The notes under the pieces are model-generated. The model saw only the letters and a program-made list of their open reading frames with translations. It was not told the origin of the DNA and did not search any database. A stretch of 64,000 bases of DNA from Parcubacteria group bacterium (GTDB lineage: Bacteria; Patescibacteriota; Minisyncoccia; Phycocordibacterales; WO2-35-19): positions 110,897-174,896 of the forward strand of contig JAAZAU010000012.1 in assembly GCA_012514175.1 (NCBI GenBank), read 5' to 3'. Of the stretch, positions 8,108 to 43,684 are shown one piece after another. Every line of letters begins with the position of its first letter. The first letter of the stretch is position 1. The translations under genes and the position numbers were made by a program.

Positions 8108-10003
8108 ATGTCTAAGATAATAGGAATAGATTTAGGGACCACCAACTGTGCGGTTGCGGTAATGGAATCAGGAGAACCGAAAATCATAGAAAATAGCGAG
8201 GGTGCACGCACCACACCATCAATCGTAGCCATATCTAAAACAGGTGAAAGATTGGCAGGCCTTTTAGCTAGAAGACAAGCTGTCACCAACCCTCAAAATA
8301 CCGTCTTTGGCATCAAAAGATTCATCGGTCACAATTTTGATGAACCAGCAATACAAAAAGACAAAGACACTGCGCCATTTGAGATTTCCAAATCCGACAC
8401 GGGGAGCGTGCAAGTCAAAATGAACGATCACATATACAGGCCAGAAGAAATTTCCGCTATGATTCTTACCAAACTAAAAACTGATGCTGAAGCCAAATTG
8501 GGAGAAAAAATTACTGAAGCTATCATCACCGTCCCGGCATACTTCAATGACGCGCAAAGAAAAGCCACTAAGGATGCTGGCCAGATAGCAGGTCTTGATG
8601 TGAAGAGAATAATCAACGAACCCACCGCGGCTGCTCTCGCTTACGGTTTTAACAAAAAGAAAAATGAGCAAATCGCAGTTTTTGACTTTGGTGGCGGGAC
8701 TTTTGATATCTCCATACTTGAGGTCGCTGATGATGTAGTTGAAGTTAAAGCTACTGACGGTGACTCACACTTGGGTGGTAAAGATATTGATCAAAAAATT
8801 ATCAACTGGCTTGCAAATGAGTTTAAGAAAGAATCGGGTATTGATATCACTAAAGACCCTTTGGCTCTCCAACGTCTTGATGAAGCTGCTGAAAAAGCGA
8901 AAATAGAACTTTCTTCTACCACCGAAACCGAGGTCAACATTCCATTTATTACATCCGACGCTTCTGGTCCAAGACACTTACTCATTAAGATGAACCGCGC
9001 TAAATTAGAAGAAATCGCGGATGAATTCATTCAAAGAGCCATAGATATTACAAAACGCGCCATAGAAAGTTCGCCATTTAACGTGGGTGATATTGATGAA
9101 ATTGTGCTCGTTGGTGGACAAACCAGAATGCCAAAAGTAGTAGAGGAGGTGAAAAAGTTTTTTGGTAAAGAACCAAACAAGAGCATTAACCCTGACGAAG
9201 TGGTCGCACTCGGCGCCGCTATTCAAGGTGGTATTATTGGTGGTGAAGTTAAAGATATTTTACTTCTTGATGTGATTCCGCTTTCTTTAGGATTGGAAAC
9301 TATGGGCGGTGTAGCCACTAAACTCATTGAACGCAACACCACCATTCCAGCTTCCAAATCTCAAATATTTTCAACTGCCGCTGACAATCAAACCTCTGTT
9401 GAAATCCATATCGTTCAAGGAGAGCGACCTCTTGCTAGCGACAACCGCACTTTAGGCAGATTTATTCTTGATGGTATTCCACCAGCACCTCGTGGCACAC
9501 CTCAAATTGAAGTAACCTTTGACATTGACGCTAATGGTATTTTGAATGTCAAAGCTAAAGATAAATCTAGCAACAAAGAGCAGTCTATAAGAATTGAAGG
9601 TAGTTCTGGACTTTCTAAAGAAGAAATAGAAAAAATGCAAAAAGACGCTGAAGCTCACGCCGCTGACGACGCTAAAAAGAAAGAAATTGCTGAAGCCAAA
9701 AACTTAGCTGAACAACTCATTTACACCACCGAAAAAGCACTCAAAGACGCGGAAGGAAAAATTTCTGACGAAATTAAAAAAGGAGTAGAAGAAAAAGTTG
9801 TCGAACTTAAAAACGTAAAAGATCAAAACGATATTTCTGCTATCAAAACTGCCACCGAAAATCTCTCTAAAGAAATTCAAAAAATAGGGGAGTATATGCA
9901 AAAAAATCCTCAACAAGGTGGAACCGCTACTGAAAGCTCTAGCGAGTCAAAAGAAGAACCTAAATCAGAAGAACAAAAGCCTTCTGAAGAAGAAAATAAG
10001 TAA
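8108..10003 (+). CDS. dnaK: molecular chaperone DnaK (Hsp70)
   Basis: 631 aa with [22 protein letters not shown] and [10 protein letters not shown] Hsp70 signatures. Confidence 0.97.
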
Positions 10004-11305: not shown

Positions 11306-12010
11306 ATGGCAATAAAATACAATTACTTTACCCCGCTGATAATGCAAAAAATTAGTTATTGCTTATTTTGGCCATTGTATAAAGTCTTTGCCAGATTAAA
11401 AATTACCGGAAGAGAAAATTTAATAGGTTTGAGGGGTCCGGTTATCTTAGCCTCAAACCACACTAGTGAATTAGATGTAACGGCACTGCCTATGGTACTG
11501 CCGTTTTTTTCTTCTCTTTCGCCAATATATTTCATTTCAAACGCTACTAAAAAATACAGAGAGAACAAAAAATTTGGTTGGAGAAGACATATTTATGGAG
11601 GTCTTTTCTTTAAAGTTCTCGGCGGTTTTTCAAGCAATTCTGGATTCAAAGATTACGCCACAGCTTTAAAAAATCACGTTGAATTACTTACAAAGGGTCA
11701 CACTCTTTGCATATTTCCAGAAGGCAAATGCACCCTTGATGGCAACATCGGTTTAGCGCGCGGAGGTTTGGGTTATTTGGTTCACACAACTCGGGCAACC
11801 GTTGTGCCCATCGCCATAAATACATTTTTTAAATTTTCTTTTAAAGATTTCCTTTTCAGAAAAAGAAAAATTTCAATTACTGTCGGCAAACCTCTTCAAG
11901 CTGAAGACATCGTTCTCCGCGGAGTTACAAACCCCGATGTAGAAGAATATCGCTTTATGGCCAATACTGTTTTGAATAAAATTAAAGAAATAATGAATCA
12001 AAAATTATGA
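11306..12010 (+). CDS. 1-acyl-sn-glycerol-3-phosphate acyltransferase-like (PlsC family)
   Basis: 234 aa with the acyltransferase HxxxxD motif (NHTSELD) and FPEG motif. Confidence 0.75.
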   Translation: MAIKYNYFTPLIMQKISYCLFWPLYKVFARLKITGRENLIGLRGPVILASNHTSELDVTALPMVLPFFSSLSPIYFISNATKKYRENKKFGWRRHIYGGLFFKVLGGFSSNSGFKDYATALKNHVELLTKGHTLCIFPEGKCTLDGNIGLARGGLGYLVHTTRATVVPIAINTFFKFSFKDFLFRKRKISITVGKPLQAEDIVLRGVTNPDVEEYRFMANTVLNKIKEIMNQKL

Positions 12011-12063
12011 CATCCTCATCGCAGAAAAGCGATATTTCAACCTCATCTGAAAAAGAAAAGGGT

Positions 12064-12513
12064 TTATAAAAGCTTTTTTATCTTGTCCAGCGAAGAATGA
12101 ACGGCTTGTATTTCTTCGATCACGCTATCTTTTCCTTTTGACAGACCCGAATGAAGTGCAAAGATAGAATCTCTTAATTCATCAGCTAGTCTTTTTCCGT
12201 CATCAATGTTACAAGTCTCTAAAAGTTCGGCCAAAAGACCGTTAGTGGAAACGTTTAAGTCGGGTTTATTTTGGTTGGTTAGAAGCATATCTTCAACTCC
12301 AAAAATAAAATCAGCATCCTCAATAAATTCAGCAAAAGGCAATTCTTCCCTTAATCTTTCTTCTGGTAAGTTAATTACCAATTCCAGCTCGGAGATAAAA
12401 GAGAGTAGTGTTTTTTTAATTTCACTTACCTGCTCTTTTTCTTTTGTGTGCGCTAATTCGTAACCGATTTTTTTGTAATTCATAGTTAGATTATATAAAG
12501 ATAGGTGACACAA
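12064..12513 (-). CDS. hypothetical acidic helical protein; true start probably the ATG at 12483
   Basis: The track ORF begins at a TTG. The first ATG (MNYKKIGYELAH...) lies at 12483..12481 and is preceded by a TATAAT 6 nt upstream, suggesting a leaderless transcript. No family recognised. Contains LPFAEFIEDADF, a weak resemblance to graspetide leader motifs. Confidence 0.5.
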   Translation of the reverse strand: MCHLSLYNLTMNYKKIGYELAHTKEKEQVSEIKKTLLSFISELELVINLPEERLREELPFAEFIEDADFIFGVEDMLLTNQNKPDLNVSTNGLLAELLETCNIDDGKRLADELRDSIFALHSGLSKGKDSVIEEIQAVHSSLDKIKKLL

Positions 12514-12689
12514 AACAAATCTGTGTCACCTATAAAACCTTGTCAACTTTTGGAGGATAGAATCCATGGTTTCTTCAGATATACTATTATACAGCAATAT
12601 GAATTACAAAAATAAGGCGCACGAGAATATAAAAATTTTTGAAGAAATTATTGGAAAAACTTTTTTCTATAAAAATTGAATATTTTTTC

Positions 12690-12788
12690 ATGAAAATTTT
12701 TGTTACAGGAGGAACAGGTTTTATTGGTAGACGACTCGTAGATCGTCTTTCTAAAAATAAAAACAATCAAGTTTTTATTCAAAAATAA
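12690..12788 (+). pseudogene. remnant of an NAD-dependent epimerase/dehydratase N-terminus
   Basis: 32-codon ORF MKIFVTGGTGFIGRRLVDRLSKNKNNQVFIQK* carries the Rossmann GxxGxxG start of an SDR-type epimerase and then stops. No downstream continuation in any frame. Confidence 0.55.
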
Positions 12789-12807
12789 AAAGGATATTTT
12801 AGCCCTA

Positions 12808-12847
12808 ATGATAAAAAGTCCTCGCTCTCTTTGTTAGAGCGAGGACT
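12808..12847 (-). terminator. rho-independent terminator of the ATP-grasp gene
   Basis: GTCCTCGCTCT-CTTTGTT-AGAGCGAGGAC perfect 11-bp stem, followed on the minus strand by TTTTTAT. Confidence 0.75.
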
Positions 12848-12862
12848 TGAGGTGTTGTATCC

Positions 12863-13810
12863 TCACAAATTTTTTTTGAAATATTCGACAATTGAATCAC
12901 GGATTGAGCCGTCATAGAGATAGTCGACCCACCACCATGCACCACAAGTGTTTATCTCAAGAAAATAAAGGTTGCCCTCGCTGTCTTCCATAAAATCTGC
13001 TGAACAATATTCAATAGATAATCTCTTCATGAGAATACGAAGTTGGCTTGTTGTCTTGTCATCAAAGTCGCAAGGTTTGAATGACACTCCTGTCGATCCA
13101 CACCTTCGGATGTCCTCAAGCTGCTGTTCGTTTGGTTCACAACAAGCTGCAAAAACATCATCTCCAACAACTACAACACGGTAGTCTTTTTTACGAACTC
13201 GATACTCTTGATATATAACCGGGCAAAATTGAAGATCGGCATCTTTTTTCAGCCAATCTTCCGGGACAATTTTAGTGTATGCCGCCATGGTTTCTCCTGG
13301 TAAAACAACCCAGGGGGTTGCCAGATTTTTGGCGACCGTTAGGTTTTTTTCTGAAAATGCCCTAATGTCTTTTGGTGTATTGGATATCAACGTAATTGGT
13401 ATCTTTAGTCCAGCCGATTTTGCATACATAAGCTGAAGTGGTTTGTTTGCGGCATAGATTATGTTTTTTGGGCTGTTTAGCCACGGCACACCAAGCAAAT
13501 CAAATATCGCAAACTGCGCAGCCCAAAGACTTCTACGTTGCAGATTTTCTCCGACAGAAGATTTTTGGTTCAAATACGGAGGAAGCTGTTGGCACCAACC
13601 GATTCCAATATGAGAACAGTTTATCTCCCGCCCATCGCAGAAAAGCGATATTTCAGTCTTATCACCATCAATAGCTAGAGAAACCTCAGATGCGTTTTCT
13701 TCCGCATCACAATTGAAACGGAATACAGGTACGCCATCCTGGCGAAGAGCATCAATCACAGTGTCGGCTTCAAAACCACGCTGGTGCGTTACGATCAAAA
13801 CGGTTTTCAT
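12863..13810 (-). CDS. ATP-grasp ligase of the microviridin/graspetide maturase family (MdnC/MvdD-like)
   Basis: 315 aa. N-terminus MKTVLIVTHQRG...VFRFNCD parallels MdnC MTVLIVTFSRD...AFRFDTD. Conserved LQFCP and YFLEIN motifs of RiPP ATP-grasp macrocyclases. AAGGAAGG SD 6 nt upstream. Confidence 0.85.
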   Translation of the reverse strand: MKTVLIVTHQRGFEADTVIDALRQDGVPVFRFNCDAEENASEVSLAIDGDKTEISLFCDGREINCSHIGIGWCQQLPPYLNQKSSVGENLQRRSLWAAQFAIFDLLGVPWLNSPKNIIYAANKPLQLMYAKSAGLKIPITLISNTPKDIRAFSEKNLTVAKNLATPWVVLPGETMAAYTKIVPEDWLKKDADLQFCPVIYQEYRVRKKDYRVVVVGDDVFAACCEPNEQQLEDIRRCGSTGVSFKPCDFDDKTTSQLRILMKRLSIEYCSADFMEDSEGNLYFLEINTCGAWWWVDYLYDGSIRDSIVEYFKKNL

Positions 13811-13880
13811 TGGAACCTTCCTTTCTTTTTATAAAGAACGAGTTTGACTGCTTTCTTAATAATATGATATAATGGTCACT

Positions 13881-15713
13881 ATGTCAAATGAAAAAGAAAA
13901 ATGGATGCAGAGGTTTTATGACCCGACAATATTTTGTATAAATCCTGCACGTAGCACGCCACACAAAACCATTATGGTTTCCAATATTTCTGGAAAGTTC
14001 CAACTTCATTCTTATGATTTTATTACAGGATTTTCTCGCCAAATAACGAACAAGCCCCAAGGCGCGCTTTTTGGTTCTATCTCTCCAGACGGAAAGTTCA
14101 TCTATTACTTAAATGATGGTCACGGTAGTGAACATGGTCATTTTGTGCGTGTGCCTTTTGTTGGTGGACGTGCAATAGACATAACTCCGTCTCTCCCGCT
14201 TTATTATTCATACGAAGTTAGTGTAAATAATGCCTGTAACCTATTATGTTTCCATGCGTCAATAGAAGATAAAAACAAAGTATACATCGTGCCTTTTGAC
14301 ACGAAGGGGAAGCCTTTGTCGCCTTATCTTTTATACGAATCAAACAAATCTATCCAAGGATCAATAATGAGTCCAGATGGAAAGTTCACCTGTATTTCAT
14401 TGTTGTCCGGCAAAAGCATAACCTCTTCCGATATACTTGTATTTGATAACACAACACGTAAAATCGCTTATTCATTTCATAATATTAAAGGTTCGTTCTT
14501 TCCTTACGCTTTTTCTGAATATTCGTCTAAGCTGAAAGTGCTAGGTCTTTCAAATGGTTCAGGATTTTATCGCCCTATTTTATTTAATCTTAAAGAAAAA
14601 ACGTCTAAGGAAATAAATAACTCTGCACTTAAGGGCGATGTTTTTGTTTTAGGATGGATTGAAAAAGAAAGAAAAATGCTGATCTCTGATGTGCATCAAG
14701 CCCAACAGAGTTTGTTTCTTTATGATTTAGAGAAAAACATCGTCAAAAAAATCGGTCCAACTACTGGCACTTTTGATCTATTCTTTAACTCAGTCGCGGT
14801 ATTACCTGACTCATCTCTCCTTATAAAATGGCACTCTTTTGAATCTCCACCGAAAATTTTAAAACTAAAATCTCCTTCATACAAAAAAATAATTGACGTA
14901 TATACGCCTGTTCCGACGACTAAATCTAAATACATACACAAAAATGTAAAATTCCGTTCGTCAGATGGCAAAGAGGTGCAGATGTGGATTGTTCAGCCCA
15001 AGAAGAAGAAAAAAAGACCTTTTGTAATTGATATCCATGGCGGACCGCACGGGTTTGTCGGTGACGAATTTTCTCCAAAAACTCAAGCATGGCTAGATAA
15101 AGGTTTTGGATATTGCGCCGTAAATTACAGGGGTTCAATAGGGTTTGGAAAAGAATTTATGGAGGGCATATATGGCAATCCTGGAACGTGGGAAGTTGAG
15201 GATGTTGTAGCTGCCCGTAATTGGCTTGTTAAAAAAGGGCTGGCGGATTCAAAGAAGATTATTCTCTCCGGTTGGTCTTGGGGAGGCTACATAGTGCTCC
15301 TTGCTCTTGGTAAGTATCCGAATTTATGGGCTGGGGGGATAGCAGGGACACCTATTGCAGATTGTGTTCTCCAATATGAAGATGAGCCAGCATATTTTCA
15401 AGCAATTGACAGAAAGAGATTTGGAGGTACGCCAGCTCAGAAACCAAAAATATACAAGAACAGTTCTCCAACAACTTACGCCAAAAACTTCCAAGCCCCC
15501 GTTCTTATTCTGTATGGGGAAAATGATGTCCGTTGTCCGCCGAGACAAATTAAACATTTTGAGAAAATACTCAGAAAAGCGAACAAGCGCATCATTGTTA
15601 ATAAATTTTCCTCAGGTCATGCCGGTGAATTTGCTAATACTAAAATCCGTATTGCCAATACGAAAAAAGCTCTTGATTTCGCTGTTAACACAATAAAAGA
15701 AGCCTCTACCTAA
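13881..15713 (+). CDS. S9 family serine peptidase (prolyl oligopeptidase / acylaminoacyl-peptidase type), cytoplasmic
   Basis: N-terminal beta-propeller region plus C-terminal alpha/beta hydrolase with GWSWGGY nucleophile elbow, ENDVRCP Asp and SSGHAG His. No signal peptide. A TTGACT-18-TATAAT promoter ends 7 nt before ATG 13881, so the transcript is probably leaderless. The track start 13872 overlaps the -10. Confidence 0.85.
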   Translation: MSNEKEKWMQRFYDPTIFCINPARSTPHKTIMVSNISGKFQLHSYDFITGFSRQITNKPQGALFGSISPDGKFIYYLNDGHGSEHGHFVRVPFVGGRAIDITPSLPLYYSYEVSVNNACNLLCFHASIEDKNKVYIVPFDTKGKPLSPYLLYESNKSIQGSIMSPDGKFTCISLLSGKSITSSDILVFDNTTRKIAYSFHNIKGSFFPYAFSEYSSKLKVLGLSNGSGFYRPILFNLKEKTSKEINNSALKGDVFVLGWIEKERKMLISDVHQAQQSLFLYDLEKNIVKKIGPTTGTFDLFFNSVAVLPDSSLLIKWHSFESPPKILKLKSPSYKKIIDVYTPVPTTKSKYIHKNVKFRSSDGKEVQMWIVQPKKKKKRPFVIDIHGGPHGFVGDEFSPKTQAWLDKGFGYCAVNYRGSIGFGKEFMEGIYGNPGTWEVEDVVAARNWLVKKGLADSKKIILSGWSWGGYIVLLALGKYPNLWAGGIAGTPIADCVLQYEDEPAYFQAIDRKRFGGTPAQKPKIYKNSSPTTYAKNFQAPVLILYGENDVRCPPRQIKHFEKILRKANKRIIVNKFSSGHAGEFANTKIRIANTKKALDFAVNTIKEAST

Positions 15714-15737
15714 AATAGATTTGATAGAGGCTTCAAA

Positions 15738-15754
15738 GGAAGAATTATTCTTCC
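15738..15754 (+). terminator. terminator-like hairpin after the S9 peptidase gene
   Basis: GGAAGAAT-T-ATTCTTCC hairpin followed by a T-rich stretch. Confidence 0.5.
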
Positions 15755-15971
15755 TGGTTGTGCTTGACCGGACTCATCACAATCGGCTTGCGGTGAGACC
15801 ATGTCTGAGTACTCGGTGTCATAGTTAAACTGGTTGACACGGCCTTAATTGTTGTCATCATACCACAACAATTTTGAGGAAATTACGCGGAGGATTTGGT
15901 TTATAAAAACTTTTTTTCTATCTTGTGATAATATAGATAAAAACGATGGATTTAAAAATTAATTAAAAATT

Positions 15972-16724
15972 ATGACCTCTCCACAATTAAAACAAAATAA
16001 TCCAAAAGAAAAAGAATGGAAAGAAAGCATTTTCCTACGACTTTCTTACTCCTTTCTCAAGGCCACTTTAGGCACATTAATCCGTTTAATTTGGGTAAAA
16101 AAAGTAGAGGGACTAGAAAATATCCCTAAAAAAGGTTCCGTAATAATTGCTTTTAACCACCAAAGTATTTTTGATTTTCTTTGTTTTATACCAATATTAC
16201 CGAGACATATTCATTATCTATCAGCTGAAAAATTTTTCTCACATCCTGTTTGGACCCCGCTCGTCAAAATGACTGGACAAATTAAGGTAGATCGCGTCAG
16301 TCGAGATAAGAGCATCTCACACCAAACTCTTTATAAATACCTAGCTAATAATAAAGTAATTGGTATTTACCCAGAGGGGACCCGATCGCCATTTGAGAAA
16401 GAAATGCTTTATGCTTTCACAGGTGTTGCTAAATATGCAATCAACGCACAAGTGCCGGTTATACCGGTTGGCATCAAGGGCACTTATGAAATTATGTCCC
16501 GACACGACAAAAAACCTAAATTTAAAAAACTAGCAACTTTTCACATTGGCAAACCAATAGATTTTACAAAATACCAAAGCGCAAACCTCAACAAAAAAGC
16601 TTACCGAGTTTTAACAGATAGAATTATGATGGAAATTTCAAAACTTTCGGGTAAAACTTACCCATATTACGGCAAGTTTAAAACTAAAAAACCCAAAAAA
16701 ACCACGGTTGAAACAAAGTGGTAA
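15972..16724 (+). CDS. 1-acyl-sn-glycerol-3-phosphate acyltransferase-like (PlsC family), second paralog
   Basis: 250 aa with HxxxxD (NHQSIFD) and YPEGTRS motifs. Only distantly related to the 11306..12010 paralog. Confidence 0.75.
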   Translation: MTSPQLKQNNPKEKEWKESIFLRLSYSFLKATLGTLIRLIWVKKVEGLENIPKKGSVIIAFNHQSIFDFLCFIPILPRHIHYLSAEKFFSHPVWTPLVKMTGQIKVDRVSRDKSISHQTLYKYLANNKVIGIYPEGTRSPFEKEMLYAFTGVAKYAINAQVPVIPVGIKGTYEIMSRHDKKPKFKKLATFHIGKPIDFTKYQSANLNKKAYRVLTDRIMMEISKLSGKTYPYYGKFKTKKPKKTTVETKW

Positions 16725-18479: not shown

Positions 18480-20065
18480 ATATATTCGGAATAACAAGCT
18501 TGATGATATTCTTTGCAGGAATTGGCTTTGGTCTTTTTTTGTATTCATCTGACAGAACTTCAAAACTTAATAAATCTTGGTTTATAGTTTCAATTTTTAC
18601 AGCCTTATGGGGGTTATCACTTTTCGGGGTCACTTCCGCGGACACAGCAAACATTGCTATGAAATGGCAATGTTTGCTTGATGTGTCCGCTACTTTTATT
18701 CCAGTCACATATTTTTATTTCGTTTGTCAACTATTAAAAATAAAAAGAAAAGCCTGCAATAGATGTATTTTAATTTTGGGAATTGTAATAGCAATATTTT
18801 CCTTAACTCCTTATCACAAAACAGAAATTACTACAAGATATGGTTTTTTTTGGGTTGATCCGGGGGAATATTACTTCTTGTTTTCATTTTTCTTTGGAAT
18901 TGTAACTCTCACATCACTTTTCTTGTTAATACAAGGATACTTCAAAAACAGAAAAGAACCCCTGTTTAGAGCTCAAATAAGAAACACATTAATAGCGGGC
19001 ATAATAGGTTTTGGAGGAGGTATCACCAATTTCTTTCCACAACATATAGATATATACCCATATGGTAATTATTTTATTTTACTTTATGTGTTTTTCATGA
19101 GTTATGGAGTATTGAAATACAAATTACTAAACACAAAAATAATATCTGCTCAATTGTTAGCGGGAGCAATTGTTTTAATATTTTTATTTGATCTATTAAG
19201 ATTTAATTACAATTTATATGATTGGATTGTAAAATTTATATTATTTATACTTGTTTTGTTATTTAGTGTTTTCTTAATAAGAAGCGTATTTAAAGAAATA
19301 GAGCAACGTGAACATATAAAAAACCTCGCTAAAGATTTACAGGAAGCAAATGAAAAATTGAAAGAATTGGATCAAATGAAATCAGAATTTATGTCCTTAG
19401 CCACACACCAAATTAGAGCGCCACTGACCGCTATCCGAGGTTATTCTTCAATGCTTCTAGAAGGGGATTTTGGAGCTTTGCCAGCAAAGGCTGCCGATTC
19501 TATAGAAGTCATAACCAAATCCAGTCAAAACCTGATTGATATCGTGAACGATTTCCTCAACATTTCCAGAATAGAGCAAGGGAGAATGGTTTATGAAAAA
19601 AGTGTTTTTGATTTAGTGAAATTGGTAAAAGAAGTAGCGGATGAGTTGAGACCTAACATTAAAGACGCTGGGTTAGATTTGAAAATCAATATAATACCAA
19701 ACAATCTTTTTATGGAAGTGAACGGTGATAGAAACAAATTGAGACAAGTTTTCAGCAATCTTTTAGACAACGCCACCAAATACACACTGAAAGGTAGTAT
19801 TGAAATTTCTATTACAGAAGAAAATTCTAAAGCAAAGATAGAAGTAAAAGACACCGGTGTTGGCATAGACCCAGCAGAAACCGAAAAACTTTTCGGAAAA
19901 TTTAACAGAGCCAAGGACGCAAACAAAACCAATGTTATTGGCACTGGAATCGGTCTTTATCTTGCTAAAAAAATAGTGGAAGCTCACGATGGTCGTATCC
20001 AGGTTTTTTCAGAAGGTTTAGATCATGGCACCACTTTTACCATTGAATTACCTTTGGAAAAATAA
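18476..20065 (+). CDS. sensor histidine kinase with multi-TM N-terminal sensor domain (orphan, no adjacent response regulator)
   Basis: 529 aa with about 7 predicted TM helices, then a coiled coil, H-box HQIRAPLTAIRGY, N-box and G-boxes (GTGIGLYLAKKIVEAHDGRI). Confidence 0.9.
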   Translation: MNIFGITSLMIFFAGIGFGLFLYSSDRTSKLNKSWFIVSIFTALWGLSLFGVTSADTANIAMKWQCLLDVSATFIPVTYFYFVCQLLKIKRKACNRCILILGIVIAIFSLTPYHKTEITTRYGFFWVDPGEYYFLFSFFFGIVTLTSLFLLIQGYFKNRKEPLFRAQIRNTLIAGIIGFGGGITNFFPQHIDIYPYGNYFILLYVFFMSYGVLKYKLLNTKIISAQLLAGAIVLIFLFDLLRFNYNLYDWIVKFILFILVLLFSVFLIRSVFKEIEQREHIKNLAKDLQEANEKLKELDQMKSEFMSLATHQIRAPLTAIRGYSSMLLEGDFGALPAKAADSIEVITKSSQNLIDIVNDFLNISRIEQGRMVYEKSVFDLVKLVKEVADELRPNIKDAGLDLKINIIPNNLFMEVNGDRNKLRQVFSNLLDNATKYTLKGSIEISITEENSKAKIEVKDTGVGIDPAETEKLFGKFNRAKDANKTNVIGTGIGLYLAKKIVEAHDGRIQVFSEGLDHGTTFTIELPLEK

Positions 20066-22213: not shown

Positions 22214-22271
22214 TCACATTCGGAAATTTAGGTCATGGCACCACTTTTACCATTGAATTACCTTTGGAAAA
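22214..22271 (+). pseudogene. remnant copy of the histidine-kinase 3' end (direct repeat of 20005..20061)
   Basis: 39 nt (22233..22271) are identical to 20023..20061. Flanking bases are also similar. The fragment encodes ..GHGTTFTIELPLE.. in frame, like the kinase C-terminus (DHGTTFTIELPLEK*). Confidence 0.7.
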
Positions 22272-28539: not shown

Positions 28540-29061
28540 TTATTCGCAGGGATTTTCTTCTTGGTCAGAACCGTAAAAACCACCACTAAGCAACGCGTTG
28601 AAATTTTGGTAGGCTTTGTTTCGGTTAGGATCACCTTTGAGCATTTCCACTTCCAAAAGCGATGATTCTTCATACATACCCTCTATGCTACCAGTTCTCT
28701 CAAACAAACAATAATTACCTTTACTGATAGCAGCTCTACCCGCTTGAGCAGCACTGTCATCTCCAGCATTGCCAGCGTAAACACCGGTTTGCAAAGCTTT
28801 GGCTTTTTGTCTTAGCGCAGACTGCATAACCGCGCTGTCTGGGTATCGGTCTACAATATATTTATCAAGATCATCCCAAACTCCGTTAGCGTCATCGTCA
28901 TAACCAAAACCATCGTAAGTGCTCTGCGAGGGATTGTTGGTGCCACCAGTATTGGTCGTTTTGGTGTTAGTGGCTTTTTTAGATCCACCAAAACCACAAC
29001 CCAATAAAACAATGCTCAACAAAAGCACGATCGGCAAACAAATAAGCAACGGTTTTTTCAT
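28540..29061 (-). CDS. small secreted lipoprotein, paralog A of a tandem pair
   Basis: 173 aa with lipobox LLGC. Shares YDGFGYDDDANGVWDDLDKYIVDRYPD...LQTGVYAG..DDSAAQAGRAAISK..EESSLLEVEMLKGDPNRNKAYQNFNALLSGGFYGSDQ-ENPCE with the next gene. Stretches of >100 nt are near-identical at DNA level. Confidence 0.6.
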   Translation of the reverse strand: MKKPLLICLPIVLLLSIVLLGCGFGGSKKATNTKTTNTGGTNNPSQSTYDGFGYDDDANGVWDDLDKYIVDRYPDSAVMQSALRQKAKALQTGVYAGNAGDDSAAQAGRAAISKGNYCLFERTGSIEGMYEESSLLEVEMLKGDPNRNKAYQNFNALLSGGFYGSDQEENPCE

Positions 29062-29137: not shown

Positions 29138-29641
29138 TTAAAATGCAGGTGTGAGAGGTTCGCAGGGATTTTCTTTCTGGTCAGAGCCGTAAAAACCACC
29201 ACTAAGCAACGCGTTGAAATTTTGGTAGGCTTTGTTTCGGTTAGGATCACCTTTGAGCATTTCCACTTCCAAAAGCGATGATTCTTCATCAAACCTCCTG
29301 ATGTCACCATCAGTTCTTTCAAGTAAACAATAAAGGGATTTGCTTATGGCAGCTCTACCCGCTTGAGCAGCACTGTCATCTCTAGCACTACCAGCGTAAA
29401 CACCAGTTTGCAAAGCTTTAGCCATTTGCTTCAACGTGGCCTGCATAACCGCGTTGTCTGGGTATCGGTCTACAATATATTTATCAAGATCATCCCAAAC
29501 TCCGTTAGCGTCATCGTCATAACCAAAACCATCGTAAGTGCCAAGTTGAGAAGAATTTTTAGACCCATCAAAATTATAAATCAAAAAAATAACACCTAGT
29601 AAAAACAAAATTGATAAACAAACGAACACAATTTTTTTCAT
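29138..29641 (-). CDS. small secreted/membrane-anchored protein, paralog B of the tandem pair
   Basis: 167 aa with signal-anchor N-terminus. Shares long near-identical nucleotide blocks with 28540..29061. Confidence 0.6.
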   Translation of the reverse strand: MKKIVFVCLSILFLLGVIFLIYNFDGSKNSSQLGTYDGFGYDDDANGVWDDLDKYIVDRYPDNAVMQATLKQMAKALQTGVYAGSARDDSAAQAGRAAISKSLYCLLERTDGDIRRFDEESSLLEVEMLKGDPNRNKAYQNFNALLSGGFYGSDQKENPCEPLTPAF

Positions 29642-42358: not shown

Positions 42359-43684
42359 TTAGAATTCTTTGTAGTTTGGATTGATCGCAAAATTAGCGTG
42401 AACAGTCTTGTTGCCCGTAGCAGTTAGGGTGCAAGTCCCTCCAGAACCATCAGCTTCCTTTGTGGAACCCCCATCGCAAACAGTTGAATCACTCCAACCC
42501 ACAAATATGCGACCAGTAGACGGTGTAGCGGTTAAAGTAATCTCTTCACCTTCTTCAAATTTAGCAGATTGAGAAGAACACCCTTCCCCGCATTTAATAC
42601 CATCAGGGCTACTAACCACAACTCCCTGACCAGATTTTATAACAGTAATATCAAATTCCTGATTAAGAATTTTGATTAAAACATTCGCGTAAGAATTGGT
42701 GCCTGCCGGACTACAATTTATTTCATAAGTGGTATTTACCACTGGACTGACAGAGAAAGTTCTTGAATCATTAGGATAATTCAAAGACGAACCATAACCA
42801 GTAACAGTGCAGTTGGTAGCGTTTTGATACGAAAAAGTGATATTGGCGCTATTACCTTTCTTTATTTCTGTCGGGCTGGCACTTATATTAACAGTTGCAG
42901 CAACTGGAGTGGCATAATTAGCTATCACAGTCTTATTAGAATTCACTTTAACGTTACAAGTGCGACCAGTTACAGAATTACAACCATGCCAAGCGGAAAA
43001 GGTTTGACCTCCCACAGTAGCAGGAGCGGTCACAGAAACATCGCTATTATGATAAACGTTGTAAGTTCTTTGGAATGGTGTTGAGCCGTTTGCATTACCC
43101 GCCACATCAGCTGGTGACACAACCATCGTTACCCCGCTTGCAGGATTATTGGAACTTATTGAAAGAGTGCGGAATAACCCGCCGACACTAACACCAGAGA
43201 AATCAACCCAACCAACAACACTTGAACCCCAAGCAAAACCAGAAAAACTACCCGTTTCAGTATTAAAAGAAACAGAATTAGAATGCCCATCTAGACGAAT
43301 CCAGCCATCCCAACCATCAGTCCGGCTAGTCATTGAAGAACAATTACCAGAAGCGGTTCCCGCGCAAGCCCGAATCCAACCGGTAACTTTTCCCGTAGAG
43401 AAATCAATAAGAGCATTGCCCCCTACCCCTCCCGGAAAAGAACTGAGACCACCAAATTTTACCCAGCCAATATTTTCCGACCAGGCATAACCGCCCAATA
43501 CACCATTGACATCATCAAGATAGACTCCACCATACGCTGGAGTCATATCTATCCAACCGATAGTTTCCGACCAGGCATAACCGGAAACACTAGTCACAGC
43601 AGAAAGTGCTCGAGCAGGAGCTATATTGAAAAACAAAACGGATACCATTATCAAACAGAGAAATATCAAAGTCTTATTTTTCAT
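42359..43684 (-). CDS. secreted Trp-rich repeat protein with C-terminal divergent InlB B-repeat domain
   Basis: 441 aa with signal peptide. At least 4 copies of G[YF]AW[SG]x2-3[IV]GW[IV]x[FM] (GYAWSETIGWIDM, GYAWSENIGWVKFGG, GFAWGSSVVGWVDFSG). C-terminus FVGWSDSTVCDGG...CTLTATGNKTVHANFAINPNYKEF. Confidence 0.65.
   Translation of the reverse strand: MKNKTLIFLCLIMVSVLFFNIAPARALSAVTSVSGYAWSETIGWIDMTPAYGGVYLDDVNGVLGGYAWSENIGWVKFGGLSSFPGGVGGNALIDFSTGKVTGWIRACAGTASGNCSSMTSRTDGWDGWIRLDGHSNSVSFNTETGSFSGFAWGSSVVGWVDFSGVSVGGLFRTLSISSNNPASGVTMVVSPADVAGNANGSTPFQRTYNVYHNSDVSVTAPATVGGQTFSAWHGCNSVTGRTCNVKVNSNKTVIANYATPVAATVNISASPTEIKKGNSANITFSYQNATNCTVTGYGSSLNYPNDSRTFSVSPVVNTTYEINCSPAGTNSYANVLIKILNQEFDITVIKSGQGVVVSSPDGIKCGEGCSSQSAKFEEGEEITLTATPSTGRIFVGWSDSTVCDGGSTKEADGSGGTCTLTATGNKTVHANFAINPNYKEF

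Follow-up and report, generated by a model that had tools for sequence, protein, structure and literature searches.

The locus described here lies in a 64,000-nt stretch of contig JAAZAU010000012.1 (GenBank assembly GCA_012514175.1, positions 110,897 to 174,896 of the forward strand) from a Parcubacteria group bacterium; this whole stretch is called the window below. Two acyltransferase genes, PlsC1 and PlsC2, enclose in it a mosaic island composed of a hypothetical gene (hyp), a fragment of an epimerase gene, an ATP-grasp ligase gene, an S9 peptidase gene and the remnant of a precursor gene, without any integrase or recombinase and without a tRNA target (Table 1). The element under study is a short direct repeat with one copy (copy 1, or R1) at the left edge of this island, in the spacer behind PlsC1, and the other (copy 2, or R2) inside the ATP-grasp gene. 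Its core, the 23-mer CATCGCAGAAAAGCGATATTTCA, occurs exactly twice in the window, at 12017-12039 and 13633-13655, in both cases on the forward strand and about 1.6 kb apart. No third match is present in the window when up to 3 mismatches are allowed, and the 23-mer is absent from 100 dinucleotide shuffles. Copy 1 starts 6 nt past the stop codon of PlsC1 (TGA, 12008-12010) and is contained in the 53-nt spacer ahead of the stop of hyp, a convergent open reading frame (ORF) of 139 aa. Ungapped extension lengthens the alignment to 31 nt with 28 identities (12017-12047 versus 13633-13663), the three mismatches being transitions grouped in the final 8 nt, of which 5 match. The initial annotation of this DNA had reported the perfect 23-bp repeat at these two places, its position just after the plsC stop and its reading as EISLFCD on the minus strand of the ATP-grasp coding sequence, all of which is borne out (the residues are E53-I-S-L-F-C-D59); its imperfect similarity of about 37 nt does extend beyond the core, but it ends at 31 nt, after which identity is background.

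The repeat is a real feature of the genome. Both copies sit at the same places in all 11 contigs that span the two sites, and five shorter contigs carry the one site that each of them covers. Since these 16 independently assembled contigs, obtained from several samples and apparently with different assemblers (as judged from contig names of the SPAdes-style NODE_, JGI and Logan types), are 99.6-100% identical to the window over the locus, the repeat is not an assembly artefact. The contigs of the species differ by a few single-nucleotide polymorphisms, by an indel of 1 nt in a homopolymer at 12870 and, in contig L051, by an extra block of 19 nt that consists of 9 bases and 10 N and reflects a scaffolding gap. 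The homopolymer difference, one T in the run at 12870-12877 near the 3' end of the ATP-grasp gene, is carried by L046 and L053, where the called product becomes 334 instead of 315 aa long; either a genuine variant or an effect of sequencing or assembly may underlie it. From their names, some of the contigs and samples may stem from anaerobic-digester or biogas metagenomes.

Table 1. Features of the PlsC1-PlsC2 island, its flanking genes and the related precursor-like reading frames (window coordinates unless a locus is named).
Feature	Position	Strand	Description
PlsC1 acyltransferase	11306..12010	+	Left backbone gene flanking the island
Joint, 50 nt	12011..12060		PlsC1 stop to foreign segment: CATCCT, R1 (31 nt), TGAAAAAGAAAA and G, followed by O_left
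Copy 1 (R1)	12017..12047	-	23-nt exact core (12017-12039) plus 8 nt at 5/8; non-coding fragment corresponding to ATP-grasp codons 50-60, between the PlsC1 and hyp stops
O_left	12061..12086	-	Last 23 nt of hyp including its stop, plus 3 nt downstream; direct repeat of O_right (25/26 plus a 3-nt indel)
Segment A, 527 nt	12061..12587	-	97% identical to L012 (GCA_029570585.1); last 62 nt of an acetyltransferase gene, a 13-14-bp hairpin (12501-12533) and the ORFan hyp gene (12064-12483)
NAD-dependent epimerase fragment	12690..12788	+	N-terminal 32 codons with GxxGxxG motif; rest of the gene deleted
ATP-grasp ligase gene, 315 aa	12863..13810	-	Related to graspetide (MvdC/MvdD/SAV_5884) ribosomal peptide maturases
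Copy 2 (R2)	13633..13663	-	Source copy within the ATP-grasp coding sequence; encodes D50 K T E I S L F C D59 and the first base of G60
S9 (prolyl oligopeptidase family) peptidase	13872..15713	+	Conserved divergent partner of the ATP-grasp gene
Putative graspetide precursor gene, 5'-truncated	15745..15816	-	Last 23 codons (PSTQTWSHRKPIVMSPVKHNQEE; 15748-15816) and the stop left; leader region of the relatives gone
B'	15845..15897	-	L012-type TrmB promoter/operator remnant, contiguous with O in L012 (91%); -35 box degraded; homology ends exactly at the would-be TrmB ATG
O_right	15898..15926	-	Orphan 29-nt remnant of the hyp 3' end; equals L012 save a 3-nt insertion; marks the right end of the island
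PlsC2 acyltransferase	15972..16724	+	Right backbone gene; adjoins PlsC1 in relatives L005, L015 and L030
Precursor-like ORFs in relatives	L011 3901-4059; L006 3909-4064; L008 1348-1506; L063 7900-8055; L065 4808-4975	minus in L063	

The setting of copy 1 is a region of demonstrable rearrangement. In the window PlsC1 and PlsC2 are separated by 3,961 nt (12011-15971), whereas in three relatives they are nearly adjacent, with a gap of 46 nt in L015, one of 42 nt in L005 and a single 149-aa ORF between them in L030 (Zambryskibacteria), whose downstream order PlsC2-HAD-histidine kinase is the same as here; the 3,961 nt are therefore an insertion. Part of the insertion is foreign. Positions 12587-12061 are 97% identical to bases 7927-8453 of L012, a genome of the candidate phyla radiation (CPR) that elsewhere gives with the window one weak protein-level match only and is otherwise unrelated to it, and positions 15919-15845 are 91% identical to L012 bases 8431-8506. 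Among 5.8 billion proteins, homologues of hyp were confined to the copies in L012 and L013, so that it qualifies as an ORFan. The sharing of such similar DNA by otherwise unrelated genomes indicates recent horizontal transfer between CPR genomes. In L012 the segment belongs to a co-directional array of acetyltransferase, hyp and then TrmB, and similar co-directional arrays of small genes with repeated promoter-like spacers (CTTGATTTCC..AAAATTGTTGTGGTATGATGACAACAA) are seen in L012 and L057-L062, with blocks that are present, absent or reordered between contigs; the donor-type region is variable and cassette-like, its blocks being shuffled at these spacers. Just past the end of the foreign segment, a 15-nt stretch (12598-12612, plus strand) is an exact inverted match to the start of hyp (TATGAATTACAAAAA; 12470-12484, minus strand), whose extended alignment is not significant (p ~0.07).

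What makes this segment informative is the way in which it has been broken up. A donor segment that is contiguous over 580 nt in L012 (7927-8506) is split in the window, with its halves permuted and 23-26 nt of it present at both places. The 53 nt that follow hyp in L012, which contain the TrmB promoter/operator, sit 3.8 kb away from hyp in the window, preceded by the orphan 29-nt hyp 3' end, O_right. Both O copies match the same L012 bases (8427-8453), and their starts are 3,837 nt apart (26/29 nt overall). Read along the ATP-grasp strand, the order is O, B', truncated precursor, S9, ATP-grasp, epimerase fragment, acetyltransferase 3' end, hyp and again O. Because the donor halves are permuted and O is present twice, more than one unit of a 3,837-nt repeat must have existed, either as a tandem duplication or as a concatemer, with redundant parts deleted later. 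The permuted segment and the O repeat together can be read as the footprint of a tandem duplication of ~3.84 kb followed by deletions.

The O repeats, direct repeats of 26/29 nt, lie near both ends of a 3.96-kb insert in a conserved backbone, a configuration reminiscent of genomic islands bounded by att sites. Unlike such islands, the insert lacks a tRNA target as well as any integrase or recombinase, and O comes from the 3' end of a cargo gene instead of a chromosomal attachment site; an integron or att-site origin of O is ruled out on these grounds.

As for the direction of copying, copy 2 is the original and copy 1 the derivative, since copy 2 forms part of a coding stretch that is conserved in an alignment of 23 homologues and in which C58 and D59 are almost invariant. 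At 28 of 31 positions copy 1 agrees with the resident ATP-grasp gene, against only 17-21 of 31 for the genes of the four nearest relatives, which points to the lineage's own gene, and not to a foreign paralogue, as the source. Arrival of R1 together with the hyp segment was considered and is ruled out: R1 was not found in the hyp 3' flank of three donor-type arrangements (L012/L058/L061 and the variant L062), and the downstream sequence of L062 is unrelated. Within the 50-nt joint, the 12-mer TGAAAAAGAAAA that follows R1 has one other occurrence in the window, at 13889-13900 (S9 codons 6-10). The order and strand of R1, the 12-mer and O_left mirror those of R2 (13633), the second 12-mer (13889) and O_right (15898), all of them direct repeats. 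The divergence of the R pair (3/31) is similar to that of the O pair (1/26 plus an indel).

These observations are best accommodated if copy 1 is a scar without function, all that can still be recognised of a second ATP-grasp gene, a reading to which we assign a probability of roughly 0.55. The PlsC1-PlsC2 spacer would initially have gained a graspetide cluster (precursor, S9 and ATP-grasp) beside DNA from an unrelated CPR genome (acetyltransferase, hyp and TrmB promoter). A unit of ~3.84 kb, which began with the acetyltransferase 3' end, contained hyp, the TrmB-promoter remnant, the truncated precursor, S9 and ATP-grasp and ended with the epimerase 5' end, would then have been duplicated in tandem; in the unit beside PlsC1, the interval from hyp to PlsC1 would once have been occupied by B', precursor, S9 and ATP-grasp. 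Subsequent deletions would have stripped the redundant halves, leaving in the right-hand unit only the last 29 nt of hyp (O_right) and removing from the left-hand unit everything between PlsC1 and hyp save 31 nt of ATP-grasp codons 50-60, possibly accompanied by 12 nt of the S9 5' end. We infer both the order, duplication before deletion, and the descent of copy 1 from the lost unit. In support of this proposal, the strand and position of copy 1 are those expected of the ATP-grasp gene of the lost unit, an independent second marker is present one unit length apart (O_left versus O_right, 25/26 plus a 3-nt indel), and gene fragments at other joints, namely the epimerase N-terminus, the acetyltransferase 3' end and the leaderless precursor, support a history of rearrangement.

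Such a history has much in common with duplication followed by random loss and with pseudogene decay by deletion: a once-contiguous segment is permuted, the short direct repeats O are spaced by one unit (3,837 nt), the joints contain orphan gene fragments, and the remnant is collinear with the intact copy and on the same strand. It departs from the typical case in that just 31 nt of the presumed second ATP-grasp copy are left, the homology of the flanks is untraceable and the intermediate is unobserved. Several further points weigh against the proposal. Outside 12017-12047 identity is at background level and copy 1 is flanked by the intact PlsC1 gene and the hyp segment; with all mismatches gathered toward one end, genuine homology may cover just 23-24 nt, the rest being a prolongation by chance. 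The 12-mer is rich in A, and matches of the same length exist in other loci, including L012-like ones, so that its collinearity counts as weak support. The O repeat and the permutation prove a duplication that included hyp, not that the duplicated unit included the ATP-grasp gene. Sparing 31 nt, or 31 plus 12 nt, requires two or three closely spaced deletion end-points. Finally, comparison with related genomes, which the initial annotation had proposed as a way of finding tandem ATP-grasp copies, brought to light the PlsC1/PlsC2 adjacency but no genome with two copies among the contigs searched, including those reached through exact look-ups of ATP-grasp, PlsC1 and PlsC2; the nearest other ATP-grasp homologue is 67% identical, and the contigs of the species are all clonal (99.6-100%) and represent the final state.

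The most serious competitor, which we regard as possible yet doubtful, is that no second gene ever existed and that, during a single illegitimate or microhomology-mediated repair event joining the hyp segment to the 3' end of PlsC1, the polymerase copied ~23-31 nt of the ATP-grasp gene and perhaps the 12 nt of the S9 5' end. It would replace several deletions by one event and thus involves fewer steps, and it suits a patch that is short and sharp-edged, with 23 exact nt and no flanking homology, that falls precisely within a 50-nt joint made up almost wholly of short pieces, and whose source is on the same strand just 1.6 kb away. There is also a possible TCA microhomology at the boundary between R1 and the 12-mer, and a 17-nt match (15/17) overlaps the R1 end. 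All this recalls the insertions produced by template switching or microhomology-mediated break-induced replication, in which short sharp patches from nearby sequence tile a junction; unlike in established templated insertions, the junction microhomologies cannot be established here without the parental sequences. Templated copying alone leaves the O repeat and the permuted donor segment unexplained, so that a separate duplication would be needed, and the three mismatches of the 31-nt version demand later mutation just as a gene remnant does. Moreover, we know of no evidence for a repair route of this kind in CPR bacteria, which we count against it. A true leftover and a short templated patch would give the same joint, and both would make copy 1 a scar derived from the ATP-grasp gene. 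A coincidental match of 23 unrelated nt, surfacing from the scanning of many windows, is less probable still and can be called unlikely. A direct repeat of 23 nt was reached in 1 of 300 windows simulated with an order-3 Markov model (P ~0.003 per window), from which some would be expected across thousands of windows, and the homology past 23 nt is not significant, 5/8 being barely above background. Nevertheless, once obvious paralogous genes are set aside the longest exact repeats of the real window end at 17-18 nt, the copies are just 1.6 kb apart (adding a spacing of at most 1.6 kb brings the chance probability to roughly 2e-4), and copy 1 falls in a demonstrable rearrangement joint with the strand and order predicted by an independently supported duplication. 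The chance expectation of about 1e-4 for 23/23 in 64 kb given in the initial annotation was therefore of the right order of magnitude and somewhat optimistic as a figure.

The remaining explanations carry little weight. Least probable of all is a dispersed repeat family (of the repetitive extragenic palindrome or miniature inverted-repeat transposable element type) or an assembly artefact at a shared k-mer, both largely refuted. The existence of a many-copy family, which had been named as the result that would overturn the original claim, was looked for and not found: even at 3 mismatches there are two copies only in 64 kb, and no further copy in ~0.7 Mb of fetched loci. Scans of metagenome, genome and viral collections returned 0 matches, which is a weak test for the metagenome and genome collections as these scans also missed the species' own two copies. 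An artefact is contradicted by the 16 near-identical contigs described above. A functional RNA is very improbable as well. In one version, read-through from PlsC1 would produce a 3' untranslated region (3'UTR) with 23-31 nt antisense to ATP-grasp mRNA codons 50-60, a complementarity that is present by construction; in another, the hairpin ATCGC-AGAAAA-GCGAT would serve as a bidirectional terminator for PlsC1 and hyp, in favour of which there is no other hairpin in the 53-nt convergent spacer and the fold is slightly better than that of shuffles (z = -2.05). Against both versions, no terminator-like site is called in 12011-12063, where the stem has 5 bp and no T-tract and is followed by the tail ATTTCA; neither copy matches Rfam at permissive E-values; the identical hairpin inside the coding sequence is plain coding sequence; and the arrangement is confined to one clonal population. 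A promoter scan of the 12011-12063 spacer gave only a weak promoter-like match at 12007-12036 (9/12), no better than shuffles. We attach an equally low probability to the repeat being kept for function, be it as the source of a PlsC1 3'UTR antisense RNA directed to the ATP-grasp mRNA or as a deletion switch between R1 and R2. A stretch of 23 exact bp is near the minimal length for RecA recombination, and such a switch, if real, would cut out 1,616 bp (hyp, the epimerase remnant and the C-terminal 255 codons of the ATP-grasp gene), turning off the enzyme in part of the population; this deletion is found in none of the species' contigs examined. Terminator, promoter, fold and Rfam scans yielded no evidence of function for copy 1, which is most likely ordinary genome wear and not a working element. 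The original proposal, namely that copy 1 is what decay has left of a second ATP-grasp copy, or else a recombination scar, and not a chance match, is thus supported by the position at the island edge, the O repeat, the permuted segment, the strand and order, the 28/31 match to the resident gene and the lack of dispersal.

The ATP-grasp protein has ~100 homologues with 36-67% identity, found in metagenome bins of CPR/Parcubacteria type (Ryanbacteria, Vogelbacteria and unnamed bins). It aligns end to end with the NCBIfam models SAV_5884 (E 1e-46), MvdC (1e-40) and MvdD (1e-35), at scores well below the curated cut-offs (159 bits versus 350 for TIGR04187 and 140 versus 425 for TIGR04185, in full-length alignments with E 1e-41 to 1e-47), and Pfam gives a weak MvdD pre-ATP-grasp match. 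Its pairing with the S9 peptidase is kept in relatives, with the exception of L065, where a methyltransferase follows the ligase instead. The 61-nt divergent spacer between the two genes contains back-to-back near-consensus sigma-70-like promoters (11/12 each, 13844-13887), and a strong ATP-grasp terminator hairpin is located at 12816-12848, beside the epimerase fragment. Beyond the 3' end of S9, relatives carry an ORF of 51-53 aa (e.g., MQNQQGQTSLLGRLFEPVPETPTVELGQYNPSTQTWSHRNSIVMSPVKHCQEE) that is kept alongside ligases 55-67% identical to that of the window, and a 55-aa homologue of it is found directly upstream of a ligase 44% identical to the window's. The pattern LLxRLFEPxPE...Y[ND]PSxQTWSHR...SPxKxNQE is shared by these ORFs in L006, L008, L011, L063 and L065 (51-55 aa), and the conserved ORF looks like a graspetide precursor.

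In the window the leader of this precursor has been replaced by the TrmB-promoter remnant; the interval also listed for the precursor region is 15745-15861 (minus strand). No second precursor copy is present in the 64-kb window, and conservation of a hairpin that spans the precursor stop codon finds no support. The graspetide cluster of the window may be orphaned, despite intact ligase and peptidase ORFs. A general description of graspetide loci in CPR bacteria already exists (Makarova et al. 2022, PMC8939145). Like the MvdC/MvdD and SAV_5884-type clusters, the locus has a ligase whose matches to maturase models run from end to end (E 1e-36 to 1e-47) and that is linked in relatives to a conserved 51-55-aa precursor-like ORF and a peptidase; in contrast to them, the ligase of the window scores far under the curated cut-offs (159 versus 350 bits), its partner is an S9 peptidase and its precursor is leaderless. 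This cluster is the setting of the repeat and has no part in its origin. Elsewhere in the window, longer direct repeats are found at 28543-28922 versus 29159-29541 (131-231 nt, 89-98%), 20017-20061 versus 22227-22271 (45 nt, 98%) and 43460-43493 versus 43550-43583 (34 nt, 88%), probably in paralogous genes or repeated domains.

In practical terms, copy 1 should not be annotated as a gene or as a regulatory site. The more interesting part of the locus is what surrounds it, a mosaic CPR island in which DNA gained by horizontal transfer is mixed with a graspetide-type cluster that has a leaderless precursor. The same rearrangements appear to have decapitated the precursor gene while leaving the ligase and the peptidase intact, which bears on the activity of the cluster. 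The locus thus provides a small and clear case of a reduced CPR genome remodelled by the uptake of foreign DNA, local duplication and deletion, processes that leave behind spacer fragments derived from coding sequence.

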